DNA of 26,546 nucleotides from Reclinomonas americana ATCC 50394 (taxonomy: Eukaryota), in NCBI GenBank assembly GCA_048213135.1, contig PS015106.1, positions 89,192 to 115,737 on the forward strand. The letters are read 5' to 3'. Shown here one piece after another: positions 29 through 26,529 of the stretch. Under the pieces are notes generated by a model that was not told the DNA's origin, did no database searches, and saw only the letters and a program-made list of their open reading frames with translations. Both the position numbers and the translations under genes were made by a program. Positions within the stretch are counted from its first letter, which is position 1. Every line of letters starts with the position of its first letter.

Positions 29-3000
29 CTGCTCCCGTGCCAATCGAGCCCGTTCTTGAATGGCGGCCACTTCTTCGGCCTGCCGGCGCTCCACAGCCTC
101 CTCGCGCTCCATTAGCTCCTTGAGGGCCCGACGCTCCGCCATGATGCGCTCGCGATGCTCAGCCTCCTACAGAAGCACAACCCCACCAACGCGATGAGTT
201 GACCACAGTAGCGCACTATGAAGAACTCAATAAGTGCACCTCACGCGCACGCCGATCACGCTCCTGTCGCTGCAACATGATGGTGTCCTCGTTGGCCAAA
301 CGCGCCATGGCCTGATCCGCAGGCACGGGGATGGTGGTGCGTCCGAGCCACTGTTGAACGCACTGGCCACCGATCTCCGGCTCCAGGAGTGCCAAGTAGT
401 AACAGAAGCGCTCAACGAGCCGTCGACGTGGTCCGATTTTCGCCAGCACCTCCTCGTACACATTGCGATTGGTGAGTTCTGTGTCTTTGGGGGCGGCAAA
501 GGGGTCGTCGTCCGGCGTTTCCGGTGTCTCGGAGGGTATCTCAAAAAGCTGCACGCGCGACGGAGTGGCAGCTTCCGGTCCGCTCGGCGACTTGCTCCGC
601 TGCTCGTGCTCCAATTGTCTCTCGATCTCGTCGGCCTCCTCCTTGAGCACCGCGAGAAGCTCCTGCCCAAACGTGCCTGCCAAGAGAGTGGCAATCAGTG
701 CACCCAAACACAAGCTGCATACATACTGGGAGGGCATGCACGCACTCGGCTGTCCTTCGGCCAGCAGTGAGCGCCGCACAGTGTCCAGCACACGCTTGGT
801 CGGCTTCTCCATCCGACATTCCAGCATGTTCATCATGGCACGCACAAGCAGCATGGCGTCGTGAAACACGCCCACGCGGTACCCTGCGTGGCGCATCATG
901 ATCATCACTTATTAGCATCGCCTGATCGCAGAAAAAGAAGCACTGTGCTGTCACGCAACCGCACAGCAGCACGCGCTGCAGCATCTTGGAGGCCTTGGAA
1001 GCGGTGGCCGCCGACAGCAGGCGGCGGTCAACGTCGGCAATGATGCGCAGGTACGCAAACACCGGGCTCTGCAGCGATGGCTCACGCAGTGCCGAGTGTG
1101 CATACATGGACACAATGCGCTCTGCAAACGAGTGCAGAATAGATGAATTGATGTGGAAGAGCAAAAAAAGGAAACCACCAAGCCGCCACACCATTGAGTG
1201 TTGCCTGCGTCAGACCGAACGTGTACAAGTCGAATGTCTCCACATCTTGCAGCGTGAGATGCTCGCTGAGTACCCACAGCTGCGAGAGGAGGGTAGTCGA
1301 TTGCCGCATGTCACGCAATACTTCCTCTGTGTACGCAGGTCACAACACGGTGACGACGACGCAAGCGGGCACGTACACACAGCAGCAACAGCGCGCTCGC
1401 ACCTTGTTCAGTGAGCAAGATGAAGCACTTGAGCAGAGCACGAGCAGCGTCGGTCTTCCAGTCCACAAGGTGCAGAATGGTGACCACGGCGTGATGAATC
1501 GAGTCGGTCGAAAGCACTGCGAAGCAAGGTCACAATCTCCACATCACGCACACGCATACATAAACGCATGGCACACCTGAAAGGTCTCCAGCACCAGTCA
1601 GCCGCTGCAAAATGTCGGCCAGCATGATAAACAGCGGCTGATCAACCGAGAACAGCTCGACTTCGCGCAGCGGCACAATTACAGTCTCGAATGGGAGGGA
1701 GCCACTGGAGGAGCCAATCTTCGCTGCCGCATGAACTGATACAGAGTGGTGAGCGTGGGGAGGCGCTACAATGAGCTTGATGCGAGTGCGTTCCGCACCT
1801 GCCAGACATGGATTCTCGGCAGCCTTCATGGCCAGCCAACGGCTAGCATCGCTGGCACACAGTTTGAAGAAGGAGCGACGGAATGTCGACCCCAGTAGCG
1901 TGTCGATACCAAACTCTGTATAGAAGCAGGTTAGTGCACGTGCTGCTGCGACATCGCTCGACATGCACAGGCGACGAAACTGGTCGAAGTCAAATCCCAC
2001 AGACATCGCACGGCGAGACGAACAGCAAGCAAGCTCTCCGAGGCCAACAGCTTCTTCACCAGCTGCAGGTAGCCGGCCTCCGTCAACGGCGCCAACGTAT
2101 GCACTGCGTGGCATGACTGTGAGTCACACTGACAGAGAGAAGTACAACCGAAGCAGCTGACGCGGGCGCACCAGAGTTCTGCAACAGGGTTACGAGTTCC
2201 ACCGACATGAGCACGGCTTGCGGGATGGTGGTCCACGACGGTCGCGTGAGCCAGTCACGTGGACACGGCTCCGGTAGTGGATCGTGCGACCGGAACCCCA
2301 TCGAGGTGGCCTGACCGTCCACCGGTGCTGCAATGACAACAGGGAGTGAATAATCTTGATCCATCTCCGCAGTCAGCCTGGACGGGAAGAGAAGATGACG
2401 AACCGACAGGCAAGTGAGCCGTGTGCACAAATGGAGCCTCCATGACTCCGTCGGCCTGGCCCACAAAGTTCGAGTGATCCTGCGGCGAGAACATGTCCGC
2501 ATCGGCCACGGCCACAAACCAGAAATCCATGCATCCCATCAGTCCCTTCACACTCGTGTCCTCCTCGGGCATCAGACCTGCCGAGCAATTAGAGCTCCAT
2601 TCGCAGAAGAAGAAGAAAGAAAGGACATGCATCACTCACCATAGAGTACACACAGGCGCAGGCAGCGTATGGCAAGGGTCATCGAAGGATGCGACAGACC
2701 GGCATCAAAGTGCGACACAAACGACAGCAGCGAGCGGCTGACACGCGCCAGCAGCCAGCACTCGCGCGATGCTGCGGGATTCTCCTCGTGCAATCCCGCA
2801 TGCACACAGTCGAGCAAGGCGTGGCACATGGTACTCTGCTCACGCAGCGCACCACATACGTACTTGGCGACCACCACCAGATCCTCGGTCACCAGTCCAA
2901 ACTTTTCTGGATCCAAGAAGAGCATCCGACAGATCTCCACCATGACACGCTGCACTTCGGTCACCGGTGACGACACCAGCTTCATCGCGCTCATCCAGTC

Positions 3001-6000
3001 CCTGTACAGATACATTGCTGTGCGCAGATGCACGTCTGCAGCACCGAACACGGTGAGCGGGCAACGAATGGCGAATGAGAGGGTCACAGAATCGCTCACC
3101 CTCGAGACGCCGCTTGTACTCGTACTCGGCGCGCAGCAGGTCGGCCGGTCGAATGTCGTCGCGAGTGAGCAAGTTCACCGACAGTCGCATCTCGTCGCGG
3201 CGCAGTCGCGGATCGAAATCCAGTGCACCTACACAGATAATGAGAGGCTTGCATCCGGCAGTGCAGCACGATCAAGAACAAACCCCACGCGCGGTACTCG
3301 CGCAGCAACCACACGGCAGCCGCGTGAATGTCGCCAACATTGCTTCGTGCAGTGGTGAGGATGCGTCGCGGCATCTCGCGATCACGCAACACGCGAGCTC
3401 GTGTGCTGCCGTATGAGCCGAGAATGCGGATGCCGTGCATGGCAGAGATGAGCATGGCACCGCTCGTGTAGCTGACAACGGTGGCGAGCTCCGAGTACAC
3501 GCCCTCGGTGAGTGCCAGGTGCGCCAGATCTGAGAACGGAAGCGGACGCGAGTGAATTCAACAGTGCACATCGGAGACACACGACGGCAGCTGGCAACAA
3601 CACCTTCGTCGGCCTCCAGGGCGGAGACCACGGCGTAAATGGCGCGTTCCTGCACCGGCCGCGTGCCACTGCTCATCAGATAGAACAGCAGCTGGAAGGC
3701 GCGCTCCTCAAAGAACCATGACAGCTCGCCTGGCGTGCACGACGGGTGAGACAATCGTGTTTGCTGCAATGCAACAAAAAAACACACAAAGGAACCTCGA
3801 TGCATGAGTCCGTGCAAATGCAGAATGACTTGCTTTTGCTTCAGTGGATCTGGCGAGTGCGCACTGCACCACACATCGAGAAAGCTGATGAGTTTGTCAT
3901 CGATTGGCACACTGTCGAGCGCCAGCAAGTCCTCGTCCGCATTCCAGATGCCGCCTGATGCATCAACACATGAGCATCACACGCAACCCTATCAATCAGT
4001 GTGGACGTACGACACACCGCTGGTGATTCCCTGCGAGCCGTCTCCGCCTGGTGTGGCTGTAGTCGGTACAGCGAGGAGTGGATTCGCAGCGCGATCATCA
4101 ACATCGTGGAAGCCGCGCACTTGTTGCACGGCGTAGTAAATCACGTTGTCTTCGGTGACGTATGCCTGCCGATAGGCGGCCACCACCTGCACACTGGCGT
4201 TTCGCACACGCTGAGCGGGGCAGTGTGCCAGGATACTCATGGTGATCAGGCCTCTCTCCTCCGCCAAGGTGTCGGGCACGCCGGCTGCGCGGGACGAGGA
4301 TAAGCAACAGGCGTGGTGAATGCGAAGCCAACGTGGGAGCAACATAGTGCGCACGTTCTTCGGCCAGACATGCAAGCGAGGAGGCTGCACAGGTTACCAC
4401 GCGCTCTTGCGCCCGCGTTTCGGGATTGTCATCTGCGGTGTGCGTGTGTGGACGTTCTCAGCAAGTGCATCACCAACACTGCGTGTTGCATTGCATGTGC
4501 ACGCACCTGCAATCTCGGAGCGCTCCTCGTGTTGTCGCCCAGACTGCGATCCACGAGCCGTACTGGCCTTTGCATGTGACACGCCTGACGATGACGACGA
4601 CGACGAGCCCAACTCGCGTTCGGCCTCCTCCTCAGCAAGCCTCCGCTCCTCTTCCTCCTGCATTTCCAGTTCGTCCTCACGGCCCTTGCGCCTCCGCTGT
4701 CGCAACAATTCCTCCGCATCCGCCTCCGCCTTGGCCGCCGCAGTCGCCGCGGCGATCTCCTGCATGGATGTGGAGCAGTTCGCGGTCAGCTTTTTGCGGC
4801 GAGATTGGCCAGCGTTGCACATACGCAGACGACACACACCTTGTCCTTTGGCCGTTCAATGAGTCCCTCTGCCTCGGCAATCACATTATTGGCGTAGTTG
4901 CGCAGCAGGCGAATGTTGGCCGGCACAAAGCCGAGACTGATGAGTCCTGGTCTCAGCGACTCGGTTTCCGCCATGAATGCAAAACACTGCGCCAGCTCCA
5001 CTTGGAGATGTGGATCGTCGATGTTGGCCCAGTCGAACAAGATGTGCATGGCCGGCGATTCGATGATTGTTCCTCGTGTTTCCTCTGCAGTGGCGCATGT
5101 CAGCAAGCACTACGAAGCACTCGTACATGCCTCTCCACCCCCCACGCACCATTGACATACAATCGCGAAAACACCCATGCCAGGTGGCTGGAGATTTCCG
5201 GGCCGGCCTTCTCACTCAAATGCAAGAGTGAAGTGAGCATGGTGCGGTTGCCGATTAGAGGGCACCCAAAGTCGGTGGCACACGCCGCACGCAGGAAGCG
5301 AATGCCTTGCGGCACAAAGCGCTCCGTGTCCTGGTGTGTCTCCACGATTTCAAGAACTCGTTGCACCACCGCCTTGACCACCAATTTCTCGGCGCATTGA
5401 GCTGGGGAAAAAAAGAGAGTGAGCGAGTTGAAGAAACGGTGACACAACACAAGAATCACGAAACGTAGCTCCGCCATGTTGGACATGGCCAAAATGGCAA
5501 ATTCCCACGCCGGCTGATTGTCAGAGGCCAGCACTTGGGTCAGAATGTGCTCAATGTCGTGTGCCAAGAAATCGTAACGAGAATCCACTACAATGAGGGA
5601 GTGAGAGAGCGGTATGCCAACAAAGAGTTGCAGTCAGGCTGCACGCAACAGTTTTCAGTGATGAACGCAATGGCTGCCGTGGCGTGTCGCTGCAGTGCTC
5701 GAATTCCACTGGCCGCAGCTCTGGTGATGGGACCGACGACACCTGCCACATTCAAAGGCTCGATGCAGCGCGCTGTCACCAACAACAAAGCGTGAGCGCA
5801 CTGATTACAAAGTGCACAATTGCTCCCACTGACACGCAACTCTCCACGGCCAGATTGGAAATGGTGCGCGCGGCCTGCACTTGAATGGAGGAGTGTGAAC
5901 TCTGTTCCACCAGCTGCACGAGACGGCGGCAGAGATTGGTGGCCAGGATTTCGGAGCGGCCGACATCGGTAGCGGCCGCATTCGCAATCACCGACAGCGC

Positions 6001-9000
6001 CATTCGCTTGAGCTCCTCACTGTCGTGCTCCAGCAACAGGCGACTCATCTCCGCCGTGACGCCCATGCCCAACAGTCGCGCCATATTATGCGCATCCACT
6101 GTCAGATTGTAGAGCGTTCCGACCACCTGCACGAAGAAGGAGGAGGGGATGAGCCACACAGCATGCCTGCACAAAGCTGCATTTCCGCCACTCACGTTTC
6201 GCATCAGCGATTCGTTCTCCGAGGGGATGTGGGCGAGAATCCACGGCACGCACTTTTCCTGCACAATGGACTCGCGCAGGTGCTCCTCGGTGGAGAAGTT
6301 GCGCAGTGCCGCAGTGAGAAGCACTTGCAGGTCGAGATCCGAGTGAAATGTCTCGCCCAGCAGCACCAGATTGCGGAATCCGTCCGGAGCGGGCATCGCC
6401 GCACGGCAAGCGGCTGCGGATTCAAGAGCACGAGTCAAGCCGGAGGGGTATGCGACACAAAGAGGAATGTACATGACACTACCATGTGCAGAGAGAACGT
6501 AGAGCACACGAGCGGCCTCCACTCTGGCTGACTTGGCGGTGGAGCGCAAGCTGTTGACGACCATACTCACGCCTCCCCACTCGGCCGCCTCGGCCTTCAC
6601 TTCGTCTGTGCAAATTTACGAGTGAGCAAGCAGCGACAGGCGCACACGGTGGGGCAACGACGAACCAATTTCCAGCGCCAAATTACCGAGCAGAGCACAT
6701 GCGTTTTCTTGAATTACCGGATCACGCACATCGCCCTTCATGACACTGAGCAAGACACCACCAGCGGCACGAACGTAGCTGCACCAGATTCCTGCATTCC
6801 ATGCTCATGAGAAGAAGGGGTGGTAAGAGGGACTGCATGAAAATGAATGTGTCGCGTACCGTCCTTGGTTAAGCGAGCCAGGGTGATGAGCAAATTCTGA
6901 GTGACCAACAAATCCTCCAGCGACGCTGTGACCATCAACTTCTCCAAGCACTCGGGTTGGGCAAGTTGTGTGCGCACAGAATCTGCACGTGTATATATAA
7001 GGACACCAAACTGCACTGCACGTTCACGAACACAAGCTATCGTTCCGAGAAACGCAACCAACTTGCGAAATGCCGGCCAAGCAGCGCAAGGCATTTCCCA
7101 GTGAGCGCACGAGACCCGGATGCCGAGGGTGTAGTTCTTCTTCTCGCAGAATATCGCCTGTTTCCAAGCACGGGTGCTGGAACACCTCGAGAACGACCTC
7201 CACCAAGCCCACTTCGAGCAAACGCGGCCACATGCGTGCTGCGTGGAACCACAGACACGATCAGTAATGCGACAGCAGTGCACGCTCGCTCTAATGCGCA
7301 CGCACGATTCGCTGTCAGTGTGGCAAACGCGGCAAGACCCTCTGCTTTGAGTTCCGCATGTTCCTCACGATGAAGGACACGCACCATGCGCGGCAACACA
7401 TCCGACACGACTGCCGCCGGCACAAGAGTGTCTGCGTAGACACACTGCGTGTGAGCGCAGCGCAGCACGGCACGTGCGCTGCTCACGTGCAAGACGCGCT
7501 CACCATCGGCCACCACCTCCTCGTAGCAGAGGTACGCCTCGAGACGTACTTCGGGATCCTCGGAAAGCACGGTCCGCTCCAACATGCGCAGTCCCTGAAG
7601 CACGTGCACAAATGCACGTCTCTCACGCTCTGCGCGCTTGCCACACGTGAGATCAGTGCCTTTCGAGGTATCGCATTCTCCCAATAATCACGTGCCTGTC
7701 TTGAGCAGGAAACGCACAGCCTGCAGTGCCGTCACACGCATGGTTGGTGGTGCGCGTCGTGCAAGCTCCACAAGCACGTAGCTGACAAATTCCTTGCCGA
7801 GAGCATAGTGCAAGTCATCTGCGGTGACAGTAGTGAGGTGCGAGTGAGCTGCATGGGTCACGCGCAGCTATCGTCACGGCAAAGCGACTGAACTCTCCAT
7901 GCACAAGTTGCGCAGTGTGCTGATTGCGTGTATCTGCACGGCCTTCTCCAGTGTTGATCCGGAGAAGCAGCGGCCGGTGATGGGTCCATACGGGTGCACT
8001 TGTGTGGCCTGTCGAGCCAGATGGACGATGCTTGACAACTCGGTGATGATTGACTTGTCCATGCGCACATGCACTGCGAAGACACACCGAGTGATTGATT
8101 ACATGTCACACGAACATGCAGCAAGATCACAGCCTACCATCCTCGGTGAGCTGCGACACGGCAAACATGGCATGGTGACGAAGTCGCCAGTTCTCGGCTT
8201 TGAGCGACTTGAGCACCAGCGGCAATAATTGATGTTCAATCACTTTTGGTGCCGTTTGCAGAGCTACACGAGAGCAGAGTGAATCACCACGGATGCGACA
8301 AAAAGGAGCATGAAGGAAGCGTGTGCCACTCACCACCACAGTAGCGTACGAGGCGAGCGAGAGTCTTCAACGCTTTGCGCAATCCGTGCGTATGTGTGGT
8401 GCGCATCGTGCGTGACACAAGGAACACCAGGTCCACTTGGTCAAAGGTGAGGCACGCATAGTGCTCTGCCAACGCACTGTGAATGCCAGCAGAATGACAA
8501 ATTAACACCACTCTCGCACCACCACTCACCATTCAATGTGAGCGCATCCAGCAAATAGGCACACGCAGTTTGCATGTCATTGTCGAGTGTCATACACAGC
8601 GCATGAATCGTATCGATGTGCACCTCGACAATGTACTGCAACACGGCTTCGCCTGCAATCTCGACCGAATGAGTAACCACCCACATTCATGAAAAGTGTG
8701 CGCGCGTACGTGCACGCAACTCGTCTTCATGATGGAAGCTAACTCCATCATGCGTTGACACATGTCGTCCACGGAGCCGAGCATGATCTTGCTGAACAAC
8801 TCATCGATGACGGCCTGCCTTCTGATGCGACGCGAGCGAGCACTCTCGTCGTCCTCACTTGCCGCACCTCCAGTGCTTCCGCGACTCACAGGCCGACTGC
8901 CTCCGGCGGGGCTTCCACCACCGCGGTTGGGGATGAGCGTGAGCTGAGGCACCGTCGGTCGCCACATTTCGTCGCCATCCTCGAACTCCACCACCGGCTG

Positions 9001-10024: not shown

Positions 10025-11119
10025 ATGAGTGTGCACCACTGCGCCTACGTTTTTGACTGGTGTGTATGTGTGCCACGTGATCTGCACATGTCAATGCTTG
10101 AGTGTTGACTCTCTCTCACTCCTTCTTGTGTGATCAGTTTGCTGTACGAGTTGGGTCCGGTACACCCAACGATCAAGGACCTGGTCGATGTGAGCCCTCC
10201 ACACCCACAGTTCGATGTGAGCATGTGGCCTGCTGCTCCTCCCCCTCCTCCTCTGCTGTCTCAGTCACGAACTGATGTGCGTTGGTGTGTGTGTTTGTGT
10301 GAGGATAGGATCATTTGACCGAATCGCCGCTGTTTGTCACGTTCAAGAAGCGAGCGAGCAGCAAGCGACACCATCGACATCGCCGAGACGACAGTGAAGA
10401 GTGGGAACTGCGGGTTGCGTCCAACTCACGGTCTATTCTTGTCTACACTCTTGCGCGCTCAACACTGTGCGACAGGGATGCATCGGAACCTTCTCTCCGC
10501 TGCCACTGGGCGAAGGACTGCGACAGTACACGGTGCAGAGGTACACACTCGCACAGGTTCAGTTGGAGTTGGAGGTGTGTGTGCTCATGCCATGACGCAG
10601 TGCTTTCCGAGATCGGCGATTCGATCCGATTGAGGCGCACGAGGTCGAGGACCTCGCCGTGAACGTGTCCATTCTCACCGATTTTGAGCCGGCGGCGCAT
10701 GTGTACGACTGGGAGGTGTGTGCGTGTGCGACAAGAGTACGCACGCAATTTCCGAGTTGTCTTTTTCTCACCTGGCGTCTCTTGCTGGTGCAGATTGGTC
10801 GGCATGGCGTGTGGATGGAGTTCAAGCTCGGATCGCGCTCCACCACGGCCACGTACTTGCCGGAGATCGCAGCCGAGCAGGGTTGGGATCACGAGAAGAC
10901 GGTGAGCGTATACATGATGCCCTTTCGTCGAGCTCGTGCTTATGCACGTGTGTGTGTGCACAGATCGAGTCGCTGTTCAGGAAGGGCGGCTTCCGAGACC
11001 GCATCACGCGCGAGGTGCTGGAATCGGCGATTGTGACGCGCTACCAGAGCCAGAAGCGCTCGTTGACATGGGACGAGTACATGCAACTCAAGCGCCAAAG
11101 CATGGCGCCTGCCACATGA
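10025..11119 (+). CDS. AMMECR1: AMMECR1-family protein (7 exons)
   Basis: Exons 10025-10059, 10138-10216, 10309-10413, 10476-10540, 10601-10715, 10794-10901 and 10964-11119 give MSVHHCAYVFDCL...PLFVTF...LRGCIGTF...AFRDRRFDPI...VSILTDFE...DWEIGRHG...ATYLPEIAAEQGW...TRYQS. LRGCIG is the family hallmark. Confidence 0.95.
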
Positions 11120-11299: not shown

Positions 11300-12799
11300 A
11301 TGACCAAGCGACCACTCCCTCCCATTGCTATTGCCGCCGGCCTCACTGGTTGGGTGGCCGTTGGTGAGTGAGAGTGTGTGTGTGAGAGAGAGAGAGCGCG
11401 CACACGTCATCACATCGCTCACTCGCATGCATGCGCAGCCACTCCGGCACCCTACTCATTCATCGCCATGGGCTTCTTGCTCGGCCTCTTTGTCATGTTT
11501 GTCAACAGCCTCATCTCCTCCACCTCTTCCTCCTCATCATCATCGTCATCATCGACATCAACAGCAGCAACAGGTGCGCGACAGAATCCCGCGACTTATT
11601 TGAATAGAAAAAAGATGCACTGATGCGCTGCTTGTGTTGTTGCATCTCAGCATCGTCACCAACAGCACAAGCAGAGGCCAAGCAGCTGTCGACCGAAGAG
11701 CAGCGTCGTCTGCAGCAAGCGTACGAGCCGAACTTTGATGTGATTGCCGAGGCCTTCCGGCAGGTGCAGCACCGGATCACGCGTTTCTTGGCCGAGGCCA
11801 CGAGCGAGGAGCCGCGCGAGGAGATCTGGGAGTACGAGAAGGGCGAGGGCGGTGGCCGCACTCGTGTGTGGGAGGGCGGCGCCAATCTGGAGAAGGGCGG
11901 CGTCAACTTTTCCGCCATTCGTGGACAGCAGCTGCCCGGATCGGCACTGGCGTCGCGAGTTGCGTCCCTTTCTGTCTCTGTCTCGCACAGTGGTGCTGAC
12001 TGCAGTGGCTTGCAGCTCAACGTTAGCGCGACGACGCCGTTTGGCGCCACGGGCGTCAGCATTGTGATTCATCCGCGCAACCCGTGGGTGCCGACGATTC
12101 ACATGAACATTCGGTACTTTGAGACGGGTCAGAAGTGGTGGTTTGGCGGCGGCATCGACCTCACTCCGTACTGCGTCAAGTCGCGTGCCGACGTGGCCAA
12201 CTTCCACGGCGCGATGCGCGACGTCTGCAACGCCCATGGCATGGACTATGCGGCGCTGAAGAAGACCGCCGACGACTACTTTACGATTACGCATCGCCAG
12301 GAGATGCGTGGCGCAGGTGCGGCGGGGTACTACACACACATGCACCTTCTGTTGCTTTGTGTGTGGCAGTGACTCACTCTCCCCCTCCGTGTTACGTGCA
12401 GGTGGCATCTTTTACGACAATCTGAACACGGATCGCGTCGCCAACTTTGACTTTTGCGTGGCGGTGGGCGACACATTTATCCGCGCCTACCGACCCTTCC
12501 TGGAGGCGTCACGGCTGTCGCTGCAGTACACGCCGCGCCAGCGTGAATGGCAGCTGCTGCGCCGCGGACGCTACGTGGAATTCAACCTGGTGTACGATCG
12601 CGGCACCAAGTTCGGCCTGGAGAGCAACGGCCGCACGGAGAGCATTCTGATGTCGCTGCCGACCGAGGCGCGGTGGTGGTACGGCGGCCAGCTGCCGCAG
12701 AACCTCGCCGCGGGCACACCCGAGTGGAATGAGCGCCACGAGGCCGAGATGCGCGAGGTCTACTTCCAGCCGCACGACTGGGTCGCCGAGCTGAAGTAA
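11300..12799 (+). CDS. CPOX: Oxygen-dependent coproporphyrinogen III oxidase (HemF/CPOX) with a hydrophobic N-terminal extension
   Basis: Exons 11300-11363, 11439-11573, 11651-11958, 12016-12316 and 12402-12799. Family motifs: [75 protein letters not shown]. The two N-terminal exons are less certain than the catalytic part. Confidence 0.95.
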
Positions 12800-12927: not shown

Positions 12928-14046
12928 TCATCGGAGGAACCGCTGGCACTGCCGGATGCACTGTAGCGATACGGATAAGAAAAGAGTGGCTGATGTGGGT
13001 GGACGAAGAGTGTGGAAGCAACCTTCGTGGCCTCGATCACTAGTGGATGATGCGCGGCATCGTCGCCGAGGATTTTCTGGTGTAAACTAACCGAGCGGTC
13101 AAACAGACGCACGGCTTTGCGGAACTCTCTTCTCGCCTGCACAATGAGTCCTGTGCGAACGCGAGAGAGAGCAGGTGAGCAACAACGAAGCGGGGGGAAT
13201 GTGCAGTGGCGATGAGGCAGACCGATATTATAGACAGCCTTGGCATACTCGAGATGGGAGGTCCCGTAGTGGCGCTTGCGAATCTCCAGCACACGACCCT
13301 GCACGACGCACGACACACTGAGAATAATCGCATGGGAGACAAGGCGCGAACGGCCGTGAGACGAACTTGCAACACGAGTGCCTCCTGCAAAAGCGACAGT
13401 CAGCATCATCGCACAACTGAGAGAACAACAACGGCACGCCACCTCCAGCTCATTGGCATCGCGCTTGATGCTGGCCATGTTCTCCAGCGTGACGGCCGTC
13501 AGCGGACTGCCCTGGCCGAGGATCTTTTCACGGATGCGCACCGACATGGTGTAGTCCTTTAGTGCCTCCTCCGTGTTGCCGAGTTGGTCCATTCTGCATG
13601 CGGCGGCGCGTCAGGAACGATCAGGTCGACAAGCGAATCGAATAGCAACGCAACACGACGCCATGGTTGTGTCTCACGTCGGCCAGGATTAACCGATCGT
13701 GGCCGACCAGATCTGCTCACACGTCTGTCAGCATCTCATCGTCTCACACTGTACTGTAAGCACACGCAACGTTCTCCCAGATCCAAACATCGCTCAAACA
13801 TGCGCAGTGCCTCCTGCAGCTCGCCATTCCCGAGATACAAGTGCCCCACATCTGCAAACACAACATGTAATAAGCACCTCGTGAACGACGTGTCACGAGC
13901 GCAGCACCCAACTGAGGTACACCGACAGCAGCTTCGGGTTCTCCTTGCCATAAATCTCCTCCATGGTATCCAAACACGAGTTGTACATCTCCAACGCCGC
14001 ATCGATCGTGCCACACGAGTGATACGCGTTGCCAAGACCCAGGAAA
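12928..14046 (-). CDS. Tetratricopeptide-repeat protein (kinesin-light-chain/NPHP3-type 42-aa TPRs), 5' part lost in the gap
   Basis: Spliced peptides include LGNAYHSCGTIDAALEMYNSCLDTMEEIYGKENP, ADVRHNHGVVMDQLGNTEEALKDYTMSVRIREKILGQGSPLTAVTLENMA and AKAVYNIGLIVQARREFRKAVRLFDRSVSLHQKILG. The last exon CIRQCQRFLR ends in TGA at 12928-12930. There is an 18-nt exon at 13367-13384. Confidence 0.85.
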
Positions 14047-14930: not shown

Positions 14931-16180
14931 TTACTTGAGTTTGGCTGCATTCTTGTCGTGCTCGGGTGTTGGTGAGTGCTGCCGTGTGGTCGACGAGAGC
15001 AGCGGGGTGGTGTCCGAGCTGCCACCCGCTGCGTCGTCGGCGGAGGGTGTCATCGAGGCCAGATGGCCGCGATAGTAGCCCGGCGGGAAGTGTGGAACGT
15101 GATCCGACGCTTGGCGCACAGGGAAGAAGCAGCCGTCACCTGGCAGGTCGGAGTTGGTTCCCGGCCACCACCACCACCACGGGTTCTCGCCCAGCGCTCC
15201 GCGCAGATTGTGCAGGTAGCCGACGTGGTAGGGATTGGCAGTCTGTTGGGGCGAGAGGTGTGAGTCGAGAGACACCCTTGACATACAGAGATGGAGAGAG
15301 TGGGCAGGCACGCAACCAGGTGGTAGCGTTGTCGCAGCTTGGTCCTCCAGCCCTTGTCCATCGACTCGATGGTGGTGATGTTGCGGAAGAGCAGTGAGAA
15401 GTGGTAGCCCCCAAAGCCGCCCAGAGTCAGCGCAAAAATAATGGCGATGAAGAAGGCCAGCACCACATTCACAATCGACAGTGGTTCCAGTGGTTCCGGG
15501 AACGGTTGCTGCGCGGGGGAACGCGAGTGTGAGGACGAGCTGGTGGACTCGCTCAGAGAGAGACACACACAGACAGACATACCCCTGGTGCTGGTGGCGT
15601 AAACACGGCATACTCCAGCGAAATGGCATACAAAAAATCGCGGAACAGCGTCGCCGCAATGTAGGCACCGAGCAGCGCCGAGTACATCAGGAACTGGAAG
15701 AAGAACTTGGTGTTGTAGAAACCGACACAGTTGTTCACCCACGCTGCGTCGTAGAACGAGATCGATGAGAGTGCTGCCCACTGGCGGGCGGCGGCGGCTG
15801 CTGAGAGAAGCACACGCAACGACAGTGGTGATCCATCTTGAGCACACACCGCTCGCACGAGCTGCAGTGATGCGCGCGATCGGGCTTCGGTACAGATCGC
15901 ACCAGTGGTCGCTCCAAATCCCGCCCACTCTCATCCTTGTGCAGCACGATCGGATGGCACTTGGAGCACACACGATGTGCGCCATCAAAACGCCGCTCGA
16001 TTTGCGACATCTGCAGCCGGCCTGGTCAGCCCAACGATCATTCATCATCTGAGCACGTCGACTCACCACCACACGCTCCTGTCCCGTGGACGACGACGAT
16101 GATGAAGACTCCTCCACCACCTTGGCGTTCACCGGTTGCACTGGCGGCGGCGTTCCGTGCGATCCAGCATGCGATGGGCT
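14931..16180 (-). CDS. DHHC-type protein S-acyltransferase (palmitoyltransferase), 5' part lost in the gap
   Basis: RVCSKC...[37 protein letters not shown] (intron 15744-15820), two TM helices, the TTIE motif, a PaCCT-like [16 protein letters not shown], and TAA at 14931. Confidence 0.93.
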
Positions 16181-16237
16181 GCGACAGGCTGAGCAGATCA
16201 TCGACAAAGGCATCGCACAGCATGCATGCATGCAATC

Positions 16238-17223: not shown

Positions 17224-20160
17224 CTATCCGGTCGACGTCCACCGTGTGGAGCTCGGACTTCTTGGTGAGTTGGCGCGGCTGCGCAGCGACGACTCCCACA
17301 TCAGCGTCTGCTGGTTGACTCCGGGTGCCGCCAGATGGCGGTACTCGTGGAACTCGGCAGGGTATCTGCACAACTGGTAAGACTCTCGCGGAGGATGCCT
17401 ACGGCGCATGATCAGAGTCGGGACGCAACGCTTGTGGTGGTGGGTTCATGAACCGCTCCAGCGATCGGTGTCGGGAGGACGACGAGCGCAGCGTGGGGCT
17501 GGCACTACGCAGGCTGCGACGGTTCGGACTCGAGTTGCGCTGTGGTCTGTAAAATACAAGGTTGGTCGCAGTACACAATGAAATGGAAGGCCAGCAGAGC
17601 ACACGACGCAACGACGTCTTACGACCCTGTGCGCCCAACTGACTAAAGTGCAAGCTGCGCGCCAGATCCTCCTGCGATCGCTCCAACGCCTGCAACGCCA
17701 TGGCTCGCCCGTCTGCCTGCTCGCCTTCTTCAGCAAACGCCGCAGCCGCCGCTCCACCGAGAAGATCGCTGCTCCGCTCGTTGGCCGACTGTGGCGGTGG
17801 TACCTCACGCAACAGCTCCGTTTGCAGCGGACTGGTCGGCGACGCCTGCGAGTAGTCCGCTCCGTACAACTGGCGCAGGGCCTGCACGTCCTTTTGCAGC
17901 GACGACGCCAGTTCCCGTGACGATGAACCGCGCGCCTCCTCGCTGCTCGGTTGTGGCGTTGAGATCTTGGTCGCATCAGGTGTGCTCTGCGTCACGCGTC
18001 ACAGAAAACAGATACAAAGTCAGCAAGAGAAACGCATGCAGTCGGAATTCGCAGAATCAGACGCAACAGGTGCCTGGCGACGGCTGGCCGCAGGCGACGA
18101 CGAAGACGACGACGACGGTACGGGTTGATGGAAGACCGCACTTAACCGGTTGGCCACGCTGTAGGGCGAGCTCGTGCTCCGTGCTGGCGGCGTCTGTCGT
18201 GACTATGCATACGAAGAACATGCATGAATACTCGCATATGAAAAAATCTTCGCAGGCGGGGGCACGAGCGCACCGATCGACCCACGCGACGAGACGATGT
18301 CCGCCGAGAGCCGTCTCGCCGTGGTGATGCATCGGCCGATGTGGGCTGGCTGTGGCCGGCCGACACTGGCGCAGAAGCAGACACACCGCGCGGTGCGAAC
18401 TTGCGACGTGGGCTATTGACAAGAGATGAGTGACGACCATTATCATTCAATGCACTCGCCACAAGCACAACTCACCGGAAGCGAGGATTGCTGGAGCCAA
18501 TGAATCGCGCCGATGACAACAAGTACTGATAGGCCTCTTGCAGCAGTTCTGGTGGTACCACGCCACTCTTGGCCACAAAGTCTGTGCGTCGCCGCGAGTG
18601 AGCATCATTCCTCCTCCTTCCCTCTTGCGCTCGTCCTCACCCATCAGATAATCAGCAGCCATCAGCGGGAATCTCACGTGCGGCAACACGGGTGCCATGG
18701 CGGTGGCGAGCGTCGGCACGGCGACCGGGTGCTCACTGCCGCGCGAGGGCGTCGGATCTGCAGCAGTGAATCACGAGAGTGAGTCTCGTTGTCGCGTGTC
18801 GCTGGCGCACGACAGCCGCGCACACCTGCATCACTGCTGCTGCCAATCGAGTGCACCACAATCTCCGGCACATTCGGGTCCTGGTTGTGTGGAACCCGAC
18901 TGCGGCTCCACAGTAGCACAGCCTCAAACACCGCCTCCTGCAACACACAACTCGTCATCGTCAGCGTCACTGGTGGCACGAAGAAGAGACACAAGAGGGA
19001 TGCGGACCTCGGCCGACACATTCAAATCATCCGACGCCAACAGCTCCACCAGCAGCTCCGGCTGCAACTCGGGGAACGTAATCGTCTGCGACATGGGCTC
19101 GAACTGCTGCAGCGCTTCGCGATGGCACATCTCAAACAACAGATCACACTCGGCCGTCGCCGCCGCATTGAACAGCACCGGCAGATTCTCCGCCGTGATC
19201 TGCGTCGTCAGGAACTTGGCAATCTCATCAAACAGCGTGTACAGCGACAGCTCCCGCGCCGCAATCAGAATCTGCATGAGCGCACATGAGAGAGGCAATG
19301 ACTGGAACAGAGCGAGACAACAACAACCGTGTCGCACCTCGCAGGCCGTGATAATGTCTCGCAGATGCACAGTGTCAGTGTACAAGTACCGCAAGACGAT
19401 CTCAAACGTCGCCGGTGAGCACGTGGTATGCGGTGTGATAATGGGCGCTTTGGAGGTCTGCAAAACACACAAGCAAAAAATGCATCAATGAATGAACACA
19501 ACAATGCATTTCTCACAGTGGTTGCATTTGCACGGTACCTCGTAACCGCTTCCAACGGCGGCAATCAGTGAACGCAGATAGGGCGATCGAGCACACAAGA
19601 CAACCTGCAAGAGAGAGTGTGTGTGTGAGTGTGTCAGGACATGACACGCAGACGCACACACAGGCGCACATGCAGATGCATGCGACTGCATCTTGCTCTT
19701 CCTTGCTCATACACAGACACAGGTAGTCACATGGAGAGAGAGAAGCATGCGCGTGTGCGCCAGTGCAAGTGACAACAGTGGCCATGACGACATGCCTCTC
19801 TCTCTCCCTCGCTCTCACGTGCTTCTCTGCCTGCACACACTCTCTCTCACACACACACTCTCTCCCTCAACGCACCTTGTGCGCTGGGAACGATCGATCG
19901 GCGACCACCACAGACAGATCGGCGAGGTCTTCAGAGAGCGCATAGGCGGCCAGGTCCTCTCCCAGTGTGGTTCGTCGAGGCACAGACGATGCCGAGGGTG
20001 GTGTTGCTGATGAGGAAGAGGACGACGAGGGCAAAGAGAAGGCCTGCTGCTGTTGTTGTTGTTGGGGTGATGCATGTGCTGGCGATGCAGCAGACATGCT
20101 GTGTGATGCAGACGAGGAGGAGGTCACCAGTGGCGACGATGACGCTCCTGCTGTGCTCAT
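17224..20160 (-). CDS. BTB/POZ-BACK domain protein with a long Ser/Arg/Pro-rich disordered C-terminal tail (about 11 introns)
   Basis: BTB: LADLSVVVADRSFPAHK|VVLCARSPYLRSL...FEIVLRYLYTD. BACK: FPELQPELLVELLASDDLNVSAE|EAVFEAVLLW...VLPHVRFPLM. The tail splices in frame through introns at donors 18475, ~18272, 18067, 17612 and 17429 to TAG at 17224. The start ATG at 20160 is uncertain (see findings). Confidence 0.85.
19605..19875 (-). repeat. 271-nt intron rich in (GA)n/(GT)n/(CA)n microsatellites
   Basis: GTGCGT...TTGCAG intron interrupting AHK|VVL. It contains tracts such as tctctctctc, acacacacac and gtgtgtgtgagtgtgt. Confidence 0.8.
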
Positions 20161-20202
20161 TCCACTGCTGTATATGAGTGTGGGAGGCAGGACGCATGCG
20201 AT

Positions 20203-21422
20203 TCATTTGCCGGACGACGACGACTGCAGTCGTCGTTGCATGAGATTCTTCAGTGCCCGCTCGCGAAGTTGCAGCTCGGTCATTCCCGAGCTGCCGGTAA
20301 CCGCTGGTGGTGGTGGTGGTGGAGGAGGTGGAGGAGGTGGGGGAGCTTCGGCGGCCACTGTCCGCTCAAGTGCCTGTTTCAGCAGGCGCTGGCGAAGCTC
20401 GGCCTCGACGAGCTCCATCTTGAGACGCTGCACGTGTGCCGAGGCCGATGTGCCAGTGGGGCTTGTTGGGTCGGACACTGGCGGTGGAGGCGGTGGAGGC
20501 GGCGGAGGCGGTGGTGGAGGAGGTGAAGGCTCGCGATGTTGATGTCGCTTGCGATCGGGCGAGCGGGATGACGATCGGTGACTGCGAGTAGTGCGTGGCG
20601 GCGATGGCAACTGGCGGCGGTGGTGATCCGGTGAGCGCGACGACGAGCGATGCCTCTTGCGGACGGCTGTTGGCGATCTGTCGTGACCGTGCGACGAGCG
20701 CCTGTGCTCACGATGGTGGTGGTGGTGGTGGTGATGGTGGCGGTGGTATCGATCGGGGGAAGGCGAGCGGTGACGATGTCGTCTCTGCAGGCGCACCGAC
20801 TCAGACGAGGCCCACACATTGTCATCATGAACAACAACCGCAACATCAACATCCTCAGTCTCTGGCGGCGGTGGTGGTGGCGGTGGTGGCGGTGGTAGCG
20901 GTGGTGAAGGAGGTGGAGGAGGCGGTGGATCCACCGGGGTCCCACTGCGACTGGTCGCACTGGACTCAACACTGGCCCGACGCGGCTCATCGATCGGCAT
21001 GTCACTGTCACTGCTTCCGCCGCCGCTGCTACTGCTGCTGTCATCGCTGCTGCTGCTCGAATCACTGCCATGCCTCCTCTTCCGCTTCCTCTCCTTGCGC
21101 CTCTTCTTCTCCTTCTTGTCGCCGTCCCTCTTCTTCTTCTTGGCATGTTTCTTCTCTTTCTTCGCCTTGCGCTTCTCCTTGCGCTGCTGTCGCGCCATTC
21201 TCCGCTCCACTCGCTTCTGCTCCATGTCCATCATGGCCTTTTCCAGTGCCGAGGGCGCTGCATGCACACATAAGTTGATGACGACAGCATGCAACTCAAC
21301 TCAAAAAAACCAACACACACACCTGCCATGGCGACTTTGCGCTCAATGGTGGAGATCAGACGCAGAGCCATTTCGTCACTGAGGCCAGCTACAGGCGCAC
21401 TAAGGCGCCGAGCAGCGGCCAT
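20203..21422 (-). CDS. Low-complexity Lys/Arg/His/Ser/Pro-rich protein, probably nuclear (SR-like/splicing-associated by composition)
   Basis: ATG at 21422 (MAAARRLS), exon 21323-21422, intron 21258-21322, then a long ORF with a poly-Lys block, a Ser/Asp tract, poly-Pro, poly-His, RSPSP/RSSSRSP motifs and two C-terminal ELR(Q/E)R(L/A)LK helices. A possible additional in-frame intron lies at ~20786-20851. Confidence 0.7.
20305..20925 (+). repeat. Coding trinucleotide tracts (GGT/GGC/GGA)n encoding poly-Pro and poly-His
   Basis: Runs at ~20306-20343, 20480-20525, 20714-20746 and 20863-20927. Confidence 0.85.
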
Positions 21423-21488: not shown

Positions 21489-23768
21489 ATGGCGAGCCAA
21501 GGCATCACAGAGCACTCCAACTCACTCAGCGCCAACATTGACTTGTGCAGCTCGCCACTGGTTCGCGAGACAGACGCATGCATTTTCCTCACGTTGCATC
21601 TCACACTCTCACAGGAGTTNNNNNNNNNNNNNNNNNNNNNNNNNNNNNNNNNNNNNNNNNNNNNNNNNNNNNNNNNNNNNNNNNNNNNNNNNNNNNNNNN
21701 NNNNNNNNNNNNNNNNNNNNNNNNNNNNNNNNNNNNNNNNNNNNNNNNNNNNNNNNNNNNNNNNNNNNNNNNNNNNNNNNNNNNNNNNNNNNNNNNNNNN
21801 NNNNNNNNNNNNNNNNNNNNNNNNNNNNNNNNNNNNNNNNNNNNNNNNNNNNNNNNNNNNNNNNNNNNNNNNNNNNNNNNNNNNNNNNNNNNNNNNNNNN
21901 NNNNNNNNTCTACCTTACCATTTGCGAATGGCAGGGCTGCTCGGTGCTCCTCGGCTTCAATCCGGTGGAGCTGTCGCGCAATGCGCCGATTGAGAAGTGG
22001 GATCGGTGCGTGTTTTGTGCTTGTCCTCTCTCCTCCGTCCTCGCCACTGACTTGATGGCGAGCAGCACCTTCCGTGATGTGGCGGTGGCATTCAATGCAC
22101 GCGCCGACGACCGGCATATTATGCTGACGCCGGTGGTCGGGCCCGAGGTAGGCCTGATTGATGGACATGCAGCAAAGCTGCACTCTTCTCATCACTATCA
22201 CGCTGCAGGGCATCACGGGCTCGACGAGAATGAAGGGCGGCTCCGGCACGAAACTGATTCTCGATGCAGCGTTTGGCGCTGCTCTGCAGACCGCACTGGC
22301 GGCGCCAGAAGACGGTGAGCAGTCACTCGCATCCGTGCTTCCTGATTTCTCCGACTGTGTCCCTCACTTCGCGCCGGCACTCGCAGTCGACGCGTCCATT
22401 CGCTCGTGGGTCGAGCGCATCTTGGACAGCACCGAGGCGGCGGTGGAGCGTCTCTACACCGAGTATGCCACCGATCTGGCGGCTGTCGTGCAGTTGGCAG
22501 CCAACTCGCTGGCACAGGGGGGCAGTGTGACGTACTTGGGTCAGGGCAGTTGCGTCTGCAGCAAGGAGGAATGTGCGGAGCTAACGACTCACATGCTTCT
22601 CTGCTGCAGATTTCGGTCTCCTCGGCTTTGTTGATGCCTCGGAGTGTCCGCCCACCTACGGCGCCGCATTCACCGACATTCGTGGATTCCTTCGCTATGG
22701 GTGGGATGAGATGCGCAACCAAGAGGTTCGCCTGATGTGCACCAGTCAGTTTGTGCTGCACCACCGCTCACTGACCATGGCGAACAGGGAAACCTGAGTG
22801 GCGTGGGTGCGCCGTACGAGATCTCACATGCAGACTTTTTCAGCAAGGTCGCGCCGCACCTGTCGTCGAAGGACCTGGTCGTCTTTTTGATGCAGACCAC
22901 AGAGGAGGTGGAGTACTACGCCGAGGTACGCCAGCGCATTGAGGCGGCTGTCGAGACGGCCGAACGACCTCGCATGGCGGCTCTGTGTGTGTACGACGCC
23001 GAGGTCGGTTTACGCCACGATAGTTGCTGCTTTCGTTGGTGACCGTCCCTCACGTATTCTGCAGGGACCACGAGTGCACATGGTCGATGTCGATGCGTGC
23101 ATCTCGGTGCCGGTGGCCTCCTCCGTCAAGACTGCTGCCGGTCGGTTCACTCCGGAGGCTGAGCTCTCGCTGAAACTGAGTCTGAATGCCATCACCACCG
23201 GTGCGTCTATCTTTTTGGTGGCTCAGGTTTATTGTCGATCCGTGAACTCACCCAGAGGGGTATCGTCATGGCTCACGATGTAGGTGCCCATGTGATGAAG
23301 GGCCTGGTGTTCGGCAATCGCATGATCAACGTCAAAGTCAGCAACAACAAGCTGTACCACCGCGCCATTTCCATCATTGCCACGGTATGCCGCGTTCCTC
23401 TGCTCTGGATCATCACGGAGATACTCATCCATTTCCTGTGCAGATTGCCAAGGTGTCAACCGAGGAAGCCACTCGTGCCTTGCATCGTTCGATTTACGAG
23501 GACATTGATCCGGAGCGCGACGTGTCCGTGTCGGAGCGCATCAGCGTGGCCGTGGAGAAGGAAAAGGTGAATGCAATGTGCTTATTGTGGGAGGTGAAGA
23601 GAGCGAAAGTCTGACTTTGCTGTTCTTCGTGTACAGGTCGTCCCCGTGGCGTTGCTGTTGGCGTTGCGTGGACGTGAGATCACGGCCAAGGACGCCATTC
23701 GCGCGCTGGCGGAGGAGCCTGTGGTGCGAGTGTGCATGCAAAAGTGGACCGAGTCCAAGGGTTCATGA
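21489..23768 (+). CDS. GCKR: Glucokinase regulatory protein-like / MurQ-related double-SIS-domain protein (interrupted by a gap)
   Basis: ITEHSNSLSANID; VLLGFNPVELSRNAPIEKWD; PVVGPE|GITGSTRMKGGSGTKLIL; GFVDASECPPTYGAAFTDIRGF; ELSLKLSLNAITT|GAHVMKGLVFGNRMINVKVSNNKLYHRA; EKVVPVALL; TGA at 23766-23768. The motif order matches vertebrate GKRP as I recall it; orthology is not tested. Confidence 0.85.
21620..21908. other. Assembly gap (289 N)
   Basis: Run of N inside the GCKR-like gene. Confidence 1.
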
Positions 23769-23797
23769 GCAGAGTACATTCAGATTTGATTTACGGT

Positions 23798-23823
23798 ACT
23801 GCTGCTGCTGTTGCTGTTGTTGC
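23798..23823 (+). repeat. Short (CTG/TTG)n microsatellite between two convergent stop codons
   Basis: ctgctgctgctgttgctgttgttgc. Confidence 0.7.
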
Positions 23824-23825
23824 CA

Positions 23826-26529
23826 CTAGCAAGTGCACTGGCTGAGTGGCACATTGAGCGGAGGCGTGTGACCGCAGCACGGAACGTAGTACGGATCTGT
23901 GGATCGAGAGTGTGAGTACGCAAGAGAAATGCCGAAACGATGGTCCACATCCCTGACCTTGCGGGTCGAGCTGCGGCTGGCCCTTGACAATGGTGGCCTG
24001 GTGAGCAGCCACGGCAGCTTTGATTTGCGCCATGATGTCGGGGTACTGCGACACGTCCAGCGGGTACGCCTCGCTCGGGTCGTGCTGTGCGGGACATGTC
24101 ACACTCCGATAAGAACCACGGTGCGCTGTGTGTGCAAACCTCAATGTTGTAGAGGAGAGGCGGGTCGTGCTTCTGCGGCGCATCCAGCGTGAACCCGTCG
24201 CGCGTGAAATAGTGCGCCTTCCACGGACCCACACGAGCAGCGTACAGGGTGTGCTCGCGCCAGTAGAAGAACTGATTGCTGACACCCTGCGCGAATGGTA
24301 AGAGAGCACCGTCAGTGCATGCAGAGCGTGCGGGAGTAATATGTGGCAAACGCAACTGGTCCATTGTGGAAGAGAATGTTGGAGAGGCTGTGGCCGTCGT
24401 AAACGCGGTCGGAGGGCGGTTTGGCACCTGGGCAACGGGAATGAGTGGGGAGCACAATTGTGGGGTGAGAAGTGGAGCGCTTGCTGCAGCGCACCAGCCA
24501 GCTCAGCAATCGTGACAAAGAGGTCCATGGTAGACGCCTGTGGACACATGCATGAGTAAGTATTTGCTCCCTGTGAACAAGCTCGTGCTGGCTTCATGCG
24601 AACCACTTCCATCGACAAAGTCATGGGTGCGATGCGGCCAGGCCAGCGCGCGATTGCAGGCTGTAGTAATATGAGTCAAAACGAGTGGACAGCGAGGCAC
24701 CAGACGCTACCGCGCAACTTCACGCATGCCACCCTCCCACGTGGAACCCTGCGAGTGTGACTGCGTTGGCGACGGCACGAGAAACAAGTGTGAATTGAGA
24801 CGTACCTTGCCGCCGCGGAAGAGGCCGCCGCTGCCGCCTTTTACTTCCTACGAGAGGAGTGTGTGAGGGTGCATGAGTGAGTGAACAAGCAGTGGGGTAT
24901 CGATGCAACAGCATCTGCAGCATGACGAGAGAGACCTGGTTGATCCACGGTCCGTTGTCTAGCAGCAAACACCAGTGAGATAAAAGTGAACAATACAGCG
25001 ACCCAGGGGAGACCATGCACCTGACGTGAAGAACACAAACGTGTTGTCGTCGAGGCCAAGACTCTTCAGGCGCTGCATGATCATGCCTGCACCTCCCACA
25101 TGAGATGCCCAGCCCATAGTACCAACAAAATGAAGGCACGTACCAATCGAGTTGTCCATCTCCTCCATGGCGTCGCCAAAGAGACCACTGCATGACGTAG
25201 CAAAAGATCAGCAAGCAGGGTGATACAGCCACTGAGGGAAAAAGTACACAAACAGACCGGCGCGACACATTCTTGAATTGATCACTGGCAAACAGATCCA
25301 CATGCACCTCTGTCGCTCACATGTCAGCGAGCGGAGTAGAATTAGAGGCAGAAAACATCGCTTACCGTCGTACGCCATGTACAAGAAGAACGGCTTGTTC
25401 TGGTTGTGCGAGATGAACTCAAAGGCACGAGCATTGTATCTATGACAGAATGGTCGTGATGACAAACATGCGAGCGGAAAAGCAGCGATGTCGAGGGTGA
25501 CGCTTTACCGTGGAGTCAGCGTGTCGAGGTCCACCGGCTACACCGAGAGGAGTGAGTACGAGAGAGGACAAGAGATAGCCGGAGTGGCAGCGTCACCTGC
25601 TGGATGATGGTGTTGTTCTCCATCTGCACGCGCAATCCAGAACTTGAGTGAATGAGCGTGAATGCACACGATAAGCAGAGCAACTCACCAGCGGAACACC
25701 CTGTGTGGAGTGCAACATGCAGCAAGTGAGTGAGTCAGTGAAAGCAAGGGAGGCGCATGAATTGCAAACACGCACAGGCCCTGTTTGCAGAGAAATGGAG
25801 TCAGTGAGAGGGGAGAGAGAACAGCTCGGGAACACAACCAACGCACAAATGTTCTGCCACTCCTGCAAGCACGACCAACAAACAAGCTCGTGAGTGCCAT
25901 AATTGCGGCAGCAAATGGCTGAGCAGGGGCACGCAACGTGGCAGGGGTACGGCGGGCATCCTTCGTCCTGTGAGTATGGCCTGCGCACGGAAAAAATGTA
26001 AATCGCTCCTCCACTCCATGCGTGCATTCCACGGACGCAACAGGCCCTGCACGACAGCGTGTGAGACAATGTACGTATCACACGCGATTCGCGGCACGCA
26101 CGTAAAAGTAGTCGAAACCATGGTCCGTGGGGCGGAAACCGGGGAGATGTCTTCATTGAGAGTGGAGTGAGAAGTTATCGGCTCACTGCACCGCTTTGCA
26201 CAAAACGCACCCCAGATGCCACTTGCCGATCAGACTGTATGGATGTACACCGAGGCGTGTCAGCGGAGAAACAAGCTCTGAACAGCGAGGCACGAAGAAA
26301 CAAACCCCGTCTGATAACCCGACGACTTGAGCAGCGACGCAATGGTGACCTCCGAGGGCGGCAACCCGCCCGTCGACGACGGGTAGAACACACGGAACAC
26401 ATTGTCGGCAGGCCAGTCATCCGCCGTGTACACACCGTTGCGCTACCGGGGGGAGAGCGTGAGCGAGCAGTCACGCGAAGAGAAGCCACAAGAAAAACGC
26501 AACAATCGGCAGTCGGCCCGTCATCAGTG
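23826..26529 (-). CDS. Arylsulfatase (formylglycine-dependent sulfatase, ARSA/ARSG/GALNS-like), about 21 introns; 5' end beyond the right edge of the window
   Basis: Spliced protein: ALMTGRLPI|RNGVY...GLPPSEVTIASLLKSSGYQTG|LIGKWHLG|H...HGFDYFY|GL|PYS...KPFFLYMAY...EMDNSIG...NTFVFFTS|DNGPW...GGK|GSTWEGGMRE|PAIARWPG...STMDLFVT...DPSE...PCCG...CTC-TAG (23826). The CxPxR motif lies outside the window. Confidence 0.95.

Follow-up and report, generated by a model that had tools for sequence, protein, structure and literature searches.

A purine at the third intron position (+3), which most eukaryotes carry, and a G at the fifth (+5) rank with the best-conserved features of intron starts in eukaryotes. 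To our knowledge, offset pairing to U1 small nuclear RNA (snRNA) has been described solely from human cells, where it is a rare rescue mode; shifted and bulged registers between human 5' splice sites and U1 were reportedly described by Roca and Krainer in 2009 and by Roca and colleagues in 2012, in the summary that Tan and colleagues gave of them in 2016. Shifted registers, and registers with a bulge at +2/+3, are experimentally established in human cells according to Tan et al. 2016 (PMC4856993), where Table 3 assigns the +2/+3 bulge to 68 of 201,541 donors (54 after curation) and puts the sum of all non-canonical registers at 2.1% of donors. Abstracts of other work distinguish two major classes of 5' splice site, AG//GU, associated with U5 loop 1, and //GURAG, associated with the U6 ACAGA box (PMC11732430, PMC9803359, PMC10581693), and for a tandem donor in STAT3 both U1 and U6 have reportedly been proposed to bind in alternative registers (PMC11162779). 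Here, the donors of a 26,546-base window on contig PS015106.1 of Reclinomonas americana ATCC 50394 were examined. The window is eukaryotic, packed with short introns, about 58% G+C and interrupted by three runs of N, and its commonest donor heptamer is GTTGCGT, which begins about 20% of its introns. The analysis drew on DNA, protein homology and within-window statistics for this single window.

The first-pass annotation of this DNA had listed 22 intron starts of unusual form, and the expected motif was present at all 22 coordinates: GTTGCGT at 19, GTTGCGC at one (24718) and GTTTCGT at two (1980 and 5464). Three of the sites are on the plus strand and the others on the minus strand, for which the coordinate given is the first base of the intron. 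In the window as a whole GTTGCGT occurs 23 times, compared with 5.59±2.22 expected and a largest value of 13 in 100 dinucleotide-preserving shuffles; a third-order Markov model expects 3.8 copies (z = 9.3), and under that model no other 7-mer in the window is as over-represented, ordinary donor heptamers included. Once gene regions are oriented by coding strand, every one of the 23 copies falls on the sense strand, and the antisense strand has none. Intron starts account for 19 of the 23; the other four are in-frame Leu-Arg codon pairs at 3390, 17813 and 23663 and one copy inside an intron at 3987, close to the Markov background. A further idea, that the donor pairs with a complementary copy of itself within its intron, is ruled out by the complete lack of antisense copies in the window.

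Introns were placed with a two-strand Viterbi gene parser, which scored an intron by its GT or GC start, its length, a branch-like motif and an acceptor matrix and took no donor base past the first two into account. Among the 106 introns returned by this motif-blind parse were both GTTTCGT sites and 12 of the 20 that begin GTTGCG. With a single donor matrix, a parse failed to find 8 of these 20; a re-parse with a two-component donor model recovered 21 of 24 benchmark junctions fixed by homology. The two-component parse, with five junctions corrected by homology or Pfam, gave a curated set of 97 introns once three unsupported introns in the 5' part of a DHHC gene and six predicted introns longer than 150 nucleotides (nt) had been left out. 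Proteins were aligned to the DNA with a spliced protein-to-genome aligner whose knowledge of splicing was limited to GT/GC-AG, using 30 of 150 listed sulfatase homologues, chosen at 420–620 residues, and 40 of 120 listed coproporphyrinogen oxidase homologues.

GTTGCGT forms a discrete donor class and is not the tail of one degenerate consensus. In the motif-blind set it begins 12 introns, where a model with independent positions expects 0.49 (binomial p = 1.3e-13), and in the curated set it begins 18, where 0.40 are expected. The hexamer GTTGCG begins 19 of the 97 curated introns (20%) against 0.94 expected, and the next hexamer, GTGCGT, begins nine, half as many. The first-pass estimate of about one in five introns is thereby borne out, with 12 of 106 as a motif-blind floor, and the same annotation had named in advance, as the outcome that would speak against it, a frequency of GTTGCG no higher than independent positions allow; the enrichment and independence tests both returned a strong excess. 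Class members are spread over all eight genes concerned: 5 of 35 curated introns in an armadillo-repeat gene, 1 of 6 in an AMMECR1-like gene, 1 of 4 in coproporphyrinogen oxidase, 2 of 7 in a TPR gene, 2 of 3 in the DHHC gene, 2 of 8 in a BTB gene, 1 of 9 in a glucokinase-regulator (GKRP)/MurQ-like gene and 5 of 23 in a sulfatase gene.

The positions within the motif are also linked. Among curated donors with T at +3, 22 of 33 lack +5G and carry +6G, a combination found in 5 of the 64 other donors, and every one of the 19 class members reads CG at +5/+6, 18 of them with T at +7. The dinucleotide GC stands at +4/+5 in 19 of 22 offset donors, compared with 15 of 63 +5G donors that have it at +3/+4 (p = 3e-7), and the conserved G is followed by T in 21 of 22 offset donors compared with 32 of 63. 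As the first pass had noted for most of the sites, the G that ordinarily closes the exon (-1G) is missing: it is present at 4 of 19 GTTGCG sites and 63 of 78 ordinary donors in the curated set (p = 1.8e-6), and at 0 of 5 and 15 of 18 in the sulfatase gene, where junctions are fixed by homology. Across the whole curated set, T occupies +3 in 33 of 97 donors, and +4 has no preference for A (17 of 97). Two predicted minus-strand donors, GTGGCGT at 13442 and GTACCGT at 19538, likewise combine +6G and +7T with a lack of +5G but do not have T at +3, and could be infrequent relatives of the offset class.

The simplest reading of this pattern would be an offset register, either shifted or bulged at +2/+3. 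GTTGCGT is GTGCGT with a T added after GT, and GTTTCGT stands in the same relation to GTTCGT; both GTTTCGT sites (1980 and 5464) agree with the one-base offset proposed for them in the first pass. The description of the motif as GTGCGT with an extra T holds in part: the one-base offset describes it well, but the class is not simply a set of ordinary donors plus T, its core being far more constrained. The conserved G lies one base later than in nearly all eukaryotic introns known to us. The GTTGCG class lacks +5G and has +6G and +7U able to pair with C4 and A3 of U1, as is expected of the shifted or bulged donors described by Roca and colleagues. Ordinary donors in the window, in turn, follow the canonical AG/GTNNGT (+5G, like -1G, in 63 of 78), and therefore a standard U1/U6 system is present.

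On balance, we consider it probable, with modest confidence, that GTTGCGT is a genuine and abundant U2-type donor read in a register offset by one base. The same spliceosome would remove these introns, and the conserved G and U would sit one base further inward, at +6 and +7; in ordinary donors these two bases pair first with C4 and A3 of U1 and then with the AC of the U6 ACAGA box. In the shifted form, +1G would lie on C9 of U1, +3U on A7, +6G on C4 and +7U on A3; in the bulged form, one of the two U's at +2/+3 would be flipped out. In either form cleavage would stay ahead of the first G. It is proposed that, because offset pairing is weaker, only the best core (GCGT) would be tolerated, with all information intronic and none exonic. 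The absence of -1G agrees with the shifted register, because C9 would then be taken by +1G. For an idealized site, ViennaRNA places the shifted register as the minimum-energy duplex at -2.5 kcal/mol (pairs +1G-C9, +3U-A7, +4G-U6, +6G-C4 and +7U-A3), close to the -2.4 kcal/mol of GUGCGU in the canonical register; these duplexes used the canonical U1 5' end with pseudouridines treated as U, and the organism's own U1 may differ.

Several observations weigh against the offset register, or against the data from which it was drawn. The duplexes that real GTTGCG sites form with canonical U1 are very weak, with a mean of -1.4 kcal/mol compared with -5.6 kcal/mol for the other donors, and only two to four U1 pairs are predicted for most of them. 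Under a standard offset U1 the better-pairing GTTAAGT would be expected, yet it occurs at one uncertain site (18146) compared with 19 for GTTGCG. Positions -1 and -2 have no preference for the A and C that a shifted register would pair (n = 19). The -1G contrast is weaker in the motif-blind set (3 of 12 compared with 52 of 94, p = 0.066), and the curated set is partly circular, as the donor model of its source parse already held both classes. Every junction is known from DNA-level inference, and the sample is a single window of 26.5 kb.

The weak duplexes could instead be explained by a second, dedicated recognition mode, in which GTTGCGT would be an optimal site in its own right and no mismatched offset pairing would be involved. 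Recognition could be by a U1 paralogue complementary to GUUGCGU, by another variant snRNA, or by an altered U6-side or protein contact (U1C, LUC7, SNRNP27K or PRP8). Seven near-invariant bases in a row followed by none, a core constraint of 19 in 22 where ordinary donors have 15 in 63, the very weak pairing predicted with canonical U1, and the rank of GTTGCGT as commonest heptamer, at 19 to the 9 of GTGCGT, are all features that such a mode would produce. However, canonical U1/U6 suits the ordinary donors, the 3' signals are identical across both classes, and the offset explains the relation to GTGCGT and GTTCGT more simply; the invariance is also partly apparent, since the class was defined by its motif. 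A dedicated variant snRNA or protein contact thus remains a serious rival to the offset register, although we hold it to be distinctly the less probable of the two, and the specific proposal of a U1 paralogue or altered U6-side contact with GUUGCGU as optimum is put forward tentatively. If it were true, the major spliceosome would operate with two 5' splice-site codes side by side, and the offset code would be that of exon-independent introns. An Rfam scan of the 26,546-base window gave no RNA-gene match.

Past the donor, the GTTGCG introns resemble their neighbors. They are 57–77 nt long, as other introns are (Mann-Whitney p = 0.29), and their base composition is alike. A CTNAY branch motif is present in 17 of 19, with the same spectrum of motifs as in the others, and its median distance to the 3' end is 17 nt for either class. 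All 19 curated members start with GT and end with AG, and the base preceding the acceptor AG is C in 17 (T in two), compared with C in 67 of the 78 others. Among the introns of the window overall, CTCAC and CTCAT are the main forms of the branch motif, placed some 17 nt before the 3' end, and 84 of 97 acceptors read CAG. Beyond about +7, no position is conserved in the GTTGCG introns and information is near zero. Alike in length, 3' signals and composition, and with nothing in common past +7, the GTTGCG introns are by these sequence features ordinary U2-type GT-AG introns, neither U12-type nor mobile copies. U12-type introns are ruled out by the donor GTTGCGT itself, to which the U12-type donor consensus is unrelated, and by branch signals that are the same as in other introns; within the window, Rfam models of minor-spliceosome snRNAs had no match.

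Descent of the class from mobile, introner-like elements, or its arrival through insertions that brought the same 5' end each time, would account for a heptamer fixed at the intron start, for narrow lengths, and for the absence of exonic -1G, as no proto-splice-site preference would then exist. Copies of one element should, however, be similar along the intron, and they are not: conservation stops at +7, the number of shared 8-mers per pair is 0.14 within the class compared with 0.21 among the others, and length, branch motif, acceptor and composition are those of other introns at sites scattered across eight unrelated genes. A shared origin of this kind is therefore quite improbable.

Judged from homologues, profile coordinates, repeat period and reading frame, the GTTGCGT sites are intron starts. 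The 20 GTTGCG sites divide by support into eight fixed by homology, a Pfam profile or repeat periodicity, one placed by a protein signature motif with a weak Pfam match (10414), nine placed by the motif-blind parse, and two that are ambiguous. The first-pass claim of 20 introns consequently stands for 18, in varying degree, and is left ambiguous at 17429 and 18067. Its claim that several cuts are pinned by protein motifs holds for the junction of TGRLPI to RNG at 26503 and for DHHC-P-W at 15820, and holds weakly for LR/GCIG at 10414.

The sulfatase gene, on the minus strand, has about 23 introns in roughly 500 codons, and five of these introns belong to the class. The GTTGCGC intron at 24661..24718 (58 nt) is supported by 28 of the 30 homologue alignments, and the GTTGCGT intron at 26443..26503 (61 nt), which joins TGRLPI to RNG, by 20 of 30 and the motif-blind parse. 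At 24287..24356 (70 nt) the donor is placed by 15 of 30 homologues and by the motif-blind parse, with an alternative at 24351, five bases off, in eight. The intron at 25981..26041 (61 nt) follows a 5-nt microexon and is supported by 14 of 30 homologues, the preceding intron by 16 of 30. At 25863..25937 (75 nt), in a variable stretch of the protein, the donor is found in 8 of 30 homologues with scattered alternatives, and in the motif-blind parse. The gene contains two 5-nt microexons of identical sequence, GGCCT. That at 26042-26046 yields ..FDYFY-GL-PYS.., in agreement with 14-16 of 30 homologue alignments, and that at 25776-25780 yields EWQNI-WP-GVPL, which aligns without gaps to the best homologue.

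In coproporphyrinogen oxidase (plus strand), the GTTGCGT intron at 11959..12015 (57 nt) is found in 30 of 40 homologue alignments, with alternatives in five and three, and in the motif-blind parse. In the DHHC gene (minus strand), the intron at 15744..15820 (77 nt) splits the proline codon of DHHC-P-W: on the Pfam DHHC profile the 5' exon stops at position 36, the split codon is 37 and the 3' exon begins at 38. A second intron of this gene, at 15243..15316 (74 nt), was placed by the motif-blind parse. The 5' part of the DHHC gene (15822-16237, minus strand) adjoins an N gap and has two overlapping frames around 15,880-15,900, both with DHHC-like cysteine-rich text; an assembly error or an atypical exon arrangement could account for this overlap. 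In the TPR gene (minus strand), the introns at 13594..13654 (61 nt) and 13713..13770 (58 nt) jointly restore the repeat period. Their donors give an exact TPR period of 42 residues, with a self-score at lag 42 of +100 compared with -78 for the alternative donors of the parser.

In the AMMECR1-like gene (plus strand), the intron at 10414..10475 (62 nt) joins ..ELR to GCIG.. and was recovered by the two-component parse alone. LRGCIG is the signature of AMMECR1 proteins; the Pfam support is weak and partial, the exon 3' of the intron matching positions 46-67 of the AMMECR1 profile with E = 0.088. In the GKRP/MurQ-like gene (plus strand), the intron at 22549..22609 (61 nt) was returned by all three parses and its 3' exon matches GKRP residues 338-375; a PDB search with the exon upstream gave no relevant match, so that structure-derived sequence does not pin the junction. 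The BTB gene (minus strand) has an intron at 17547..17612 (66 nt), in low-complexity coding sequence, that was found in the motif-blind and two-component parses and lost in the single-matrix parse. Its two remaining candidates are the ambiguous ones: that at 17366..17429 (64 nt) has an alternative in-frame donor at 17453, 24 bases upstream, with the same acceptor, and that at 17987..18067 (81 nt) was chosen by no model, although its donor is followed by stops in all three frames and by good 3' signals (CTGAC and CAG). Upstream of the BTB gene, at 20200-21371 (minus strand), is a low-complexity open frame rich in lysine, glutamate and serine, whose predicted introns are long (121-269 nt) and unreliable.

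The armadillo gene (minus strand) has many exons of 123 or 126 nt between 1981 and 8652, each of about one 41-42-residue repeat, separated by introns of 60-76 nt. Its five GTTGCGT introns were all found in the motif-blind parse: 884..959 (76 nt); 5588..5649 (62 nt), which ends a 123-nt exon of one repeat; 5773..5840 (68 nt), at whose acceptor that 123-nt exon opens; and 6983..7058 (76 nt) and 8653..8720 (68 nt), for both of which an analysis of the exon series gave further support. The two GTTTCGT introns, at 1916..1980 (65 nt) and 5402..5464 (63 nt), are in the same gene, were found in the same parse and each end a 123-nt exon. A GC-AG intron of 66 nt that starts GCACGTGATT is predicted, by the model only, at 7630-7695 on the minus strand.

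That the class is an artefact of wrong gene models, the motif being coding or compositional and the real donors elsewhere, is strongly disfavored and is the most improbable of the readings considered: two of the 20 sites are ambiguous, three exonic copies do encode Leu-Arg, parser versions missed three to four of the 24 benchmark junctions and the junctions share the DNA-level basis noted above, but at least eight were fixed independently of the motif by homologues, Pfam profile coordinates or repeat period, copies number 23 sense to 0 antisense, and the four that are not donors match the 3.8 expected as background.

Close relatives of the window's genes were scarce among the sequences searched. 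In a collection of 5.8 billion protein sequences, none of three exons searched (sulfatase, coproporphyrinogen oxidase and armadillo) reached an identity above 65%, and the window's own proteins were not among the matches. The sulfatase exon had a single match, at 63%, and the top match of the coproporphyrinogen oxidase exon was 65% identical, the top named eukaryotes for it being Thecamonas (60%), Monosiga (56%) and Balamuthia (55%), with Clydonella, Salpingoeca and Choanoeca as further names from the match clusters; apart from Thecamonas, these are choanoflagellates and amoebozoans. For the armadillo-gene exon (95 residues), a search of proteins of 168-2000 residues yielded no homologue at E <= 0.001. 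A metagenome scan for relatives of the sulfatase gene returned 26 loci at identities of up to 66%. Of seven inspected, five have one long open frame (308 to 621 amino acids) across the match, and the frames of the remaining two (114 and 127 amino acids) reach the end of their contig. The inspected loci were taken as intronless and bacterial-type, and are therefore without comparative information on introns.

Full-text searches for GTTGCGT, GUUGCGU or GTTGCG as a donor matched only primers, miRNAs and unrelated sites, in a coverage that leaves out most subscription journals, and a broader literature search for shifted registers in protists returned nothing relevant. The abundant offset donor GTTGCGT is real, unusual and probably new, and two donor alignments may be read routinely in the source organism. 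With the offset form as the single commonest donor, this organism would be a natural system in which to ask how the cleavage site is fixed when U1 and U6 pairing is displaced by one base. It would equally suit the questions of how donor recognition is divided between RNA pairing and proteins, and of how the splice-site code drifts between lineages. Gene finders that rely on a single donor matrix can be expected to mis-call roughly one intron in five in this genome, as our own single-matrix parse, with its 8 missed sites, indicates.

The nearest counterparts of this class are the shifted and bulged registers of human donors. As those are characterized in the human data cited at the outset, both groups are GT-AG, lack +5G, have an extra U after GU, are cleaved at GU, and place the G and U that pair with C4 and A3 of U1 one base deeper in the intron. 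Unlike the human registers, which are rare, the class described here makes up about 20% of donors and includes the commonest heptamer; its core is GCGT and not AAGT, and it is known from sequence alone. U12-type introns are likewise a minority class with a long, near-invariant 5' motif and no exonic contribution, but their donor motif is unrelated, and the class described here differs from other introns neither in its branch motif and the spacing of that motif nor in its acceptor. The STAT3 tandem donor resembles the GTTGCGT class in the alternative registers proposed for U1 and U6, but it is, as reported, one human tandem site and not a genome-wide class. The division between AG//GU and //GURAG is paralleled by the contrast in this window between exon-reliant donors, with -1G and weak intron positions, and intron-reliant donors without -1G. 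Unlike //GURAG, most of the intron-heavy class in this window has the one-base offset (GTTGCGT 19, GTGCGT 9), and its U at +3 and C at +5 set it apart from either class as the abstracts describe them.

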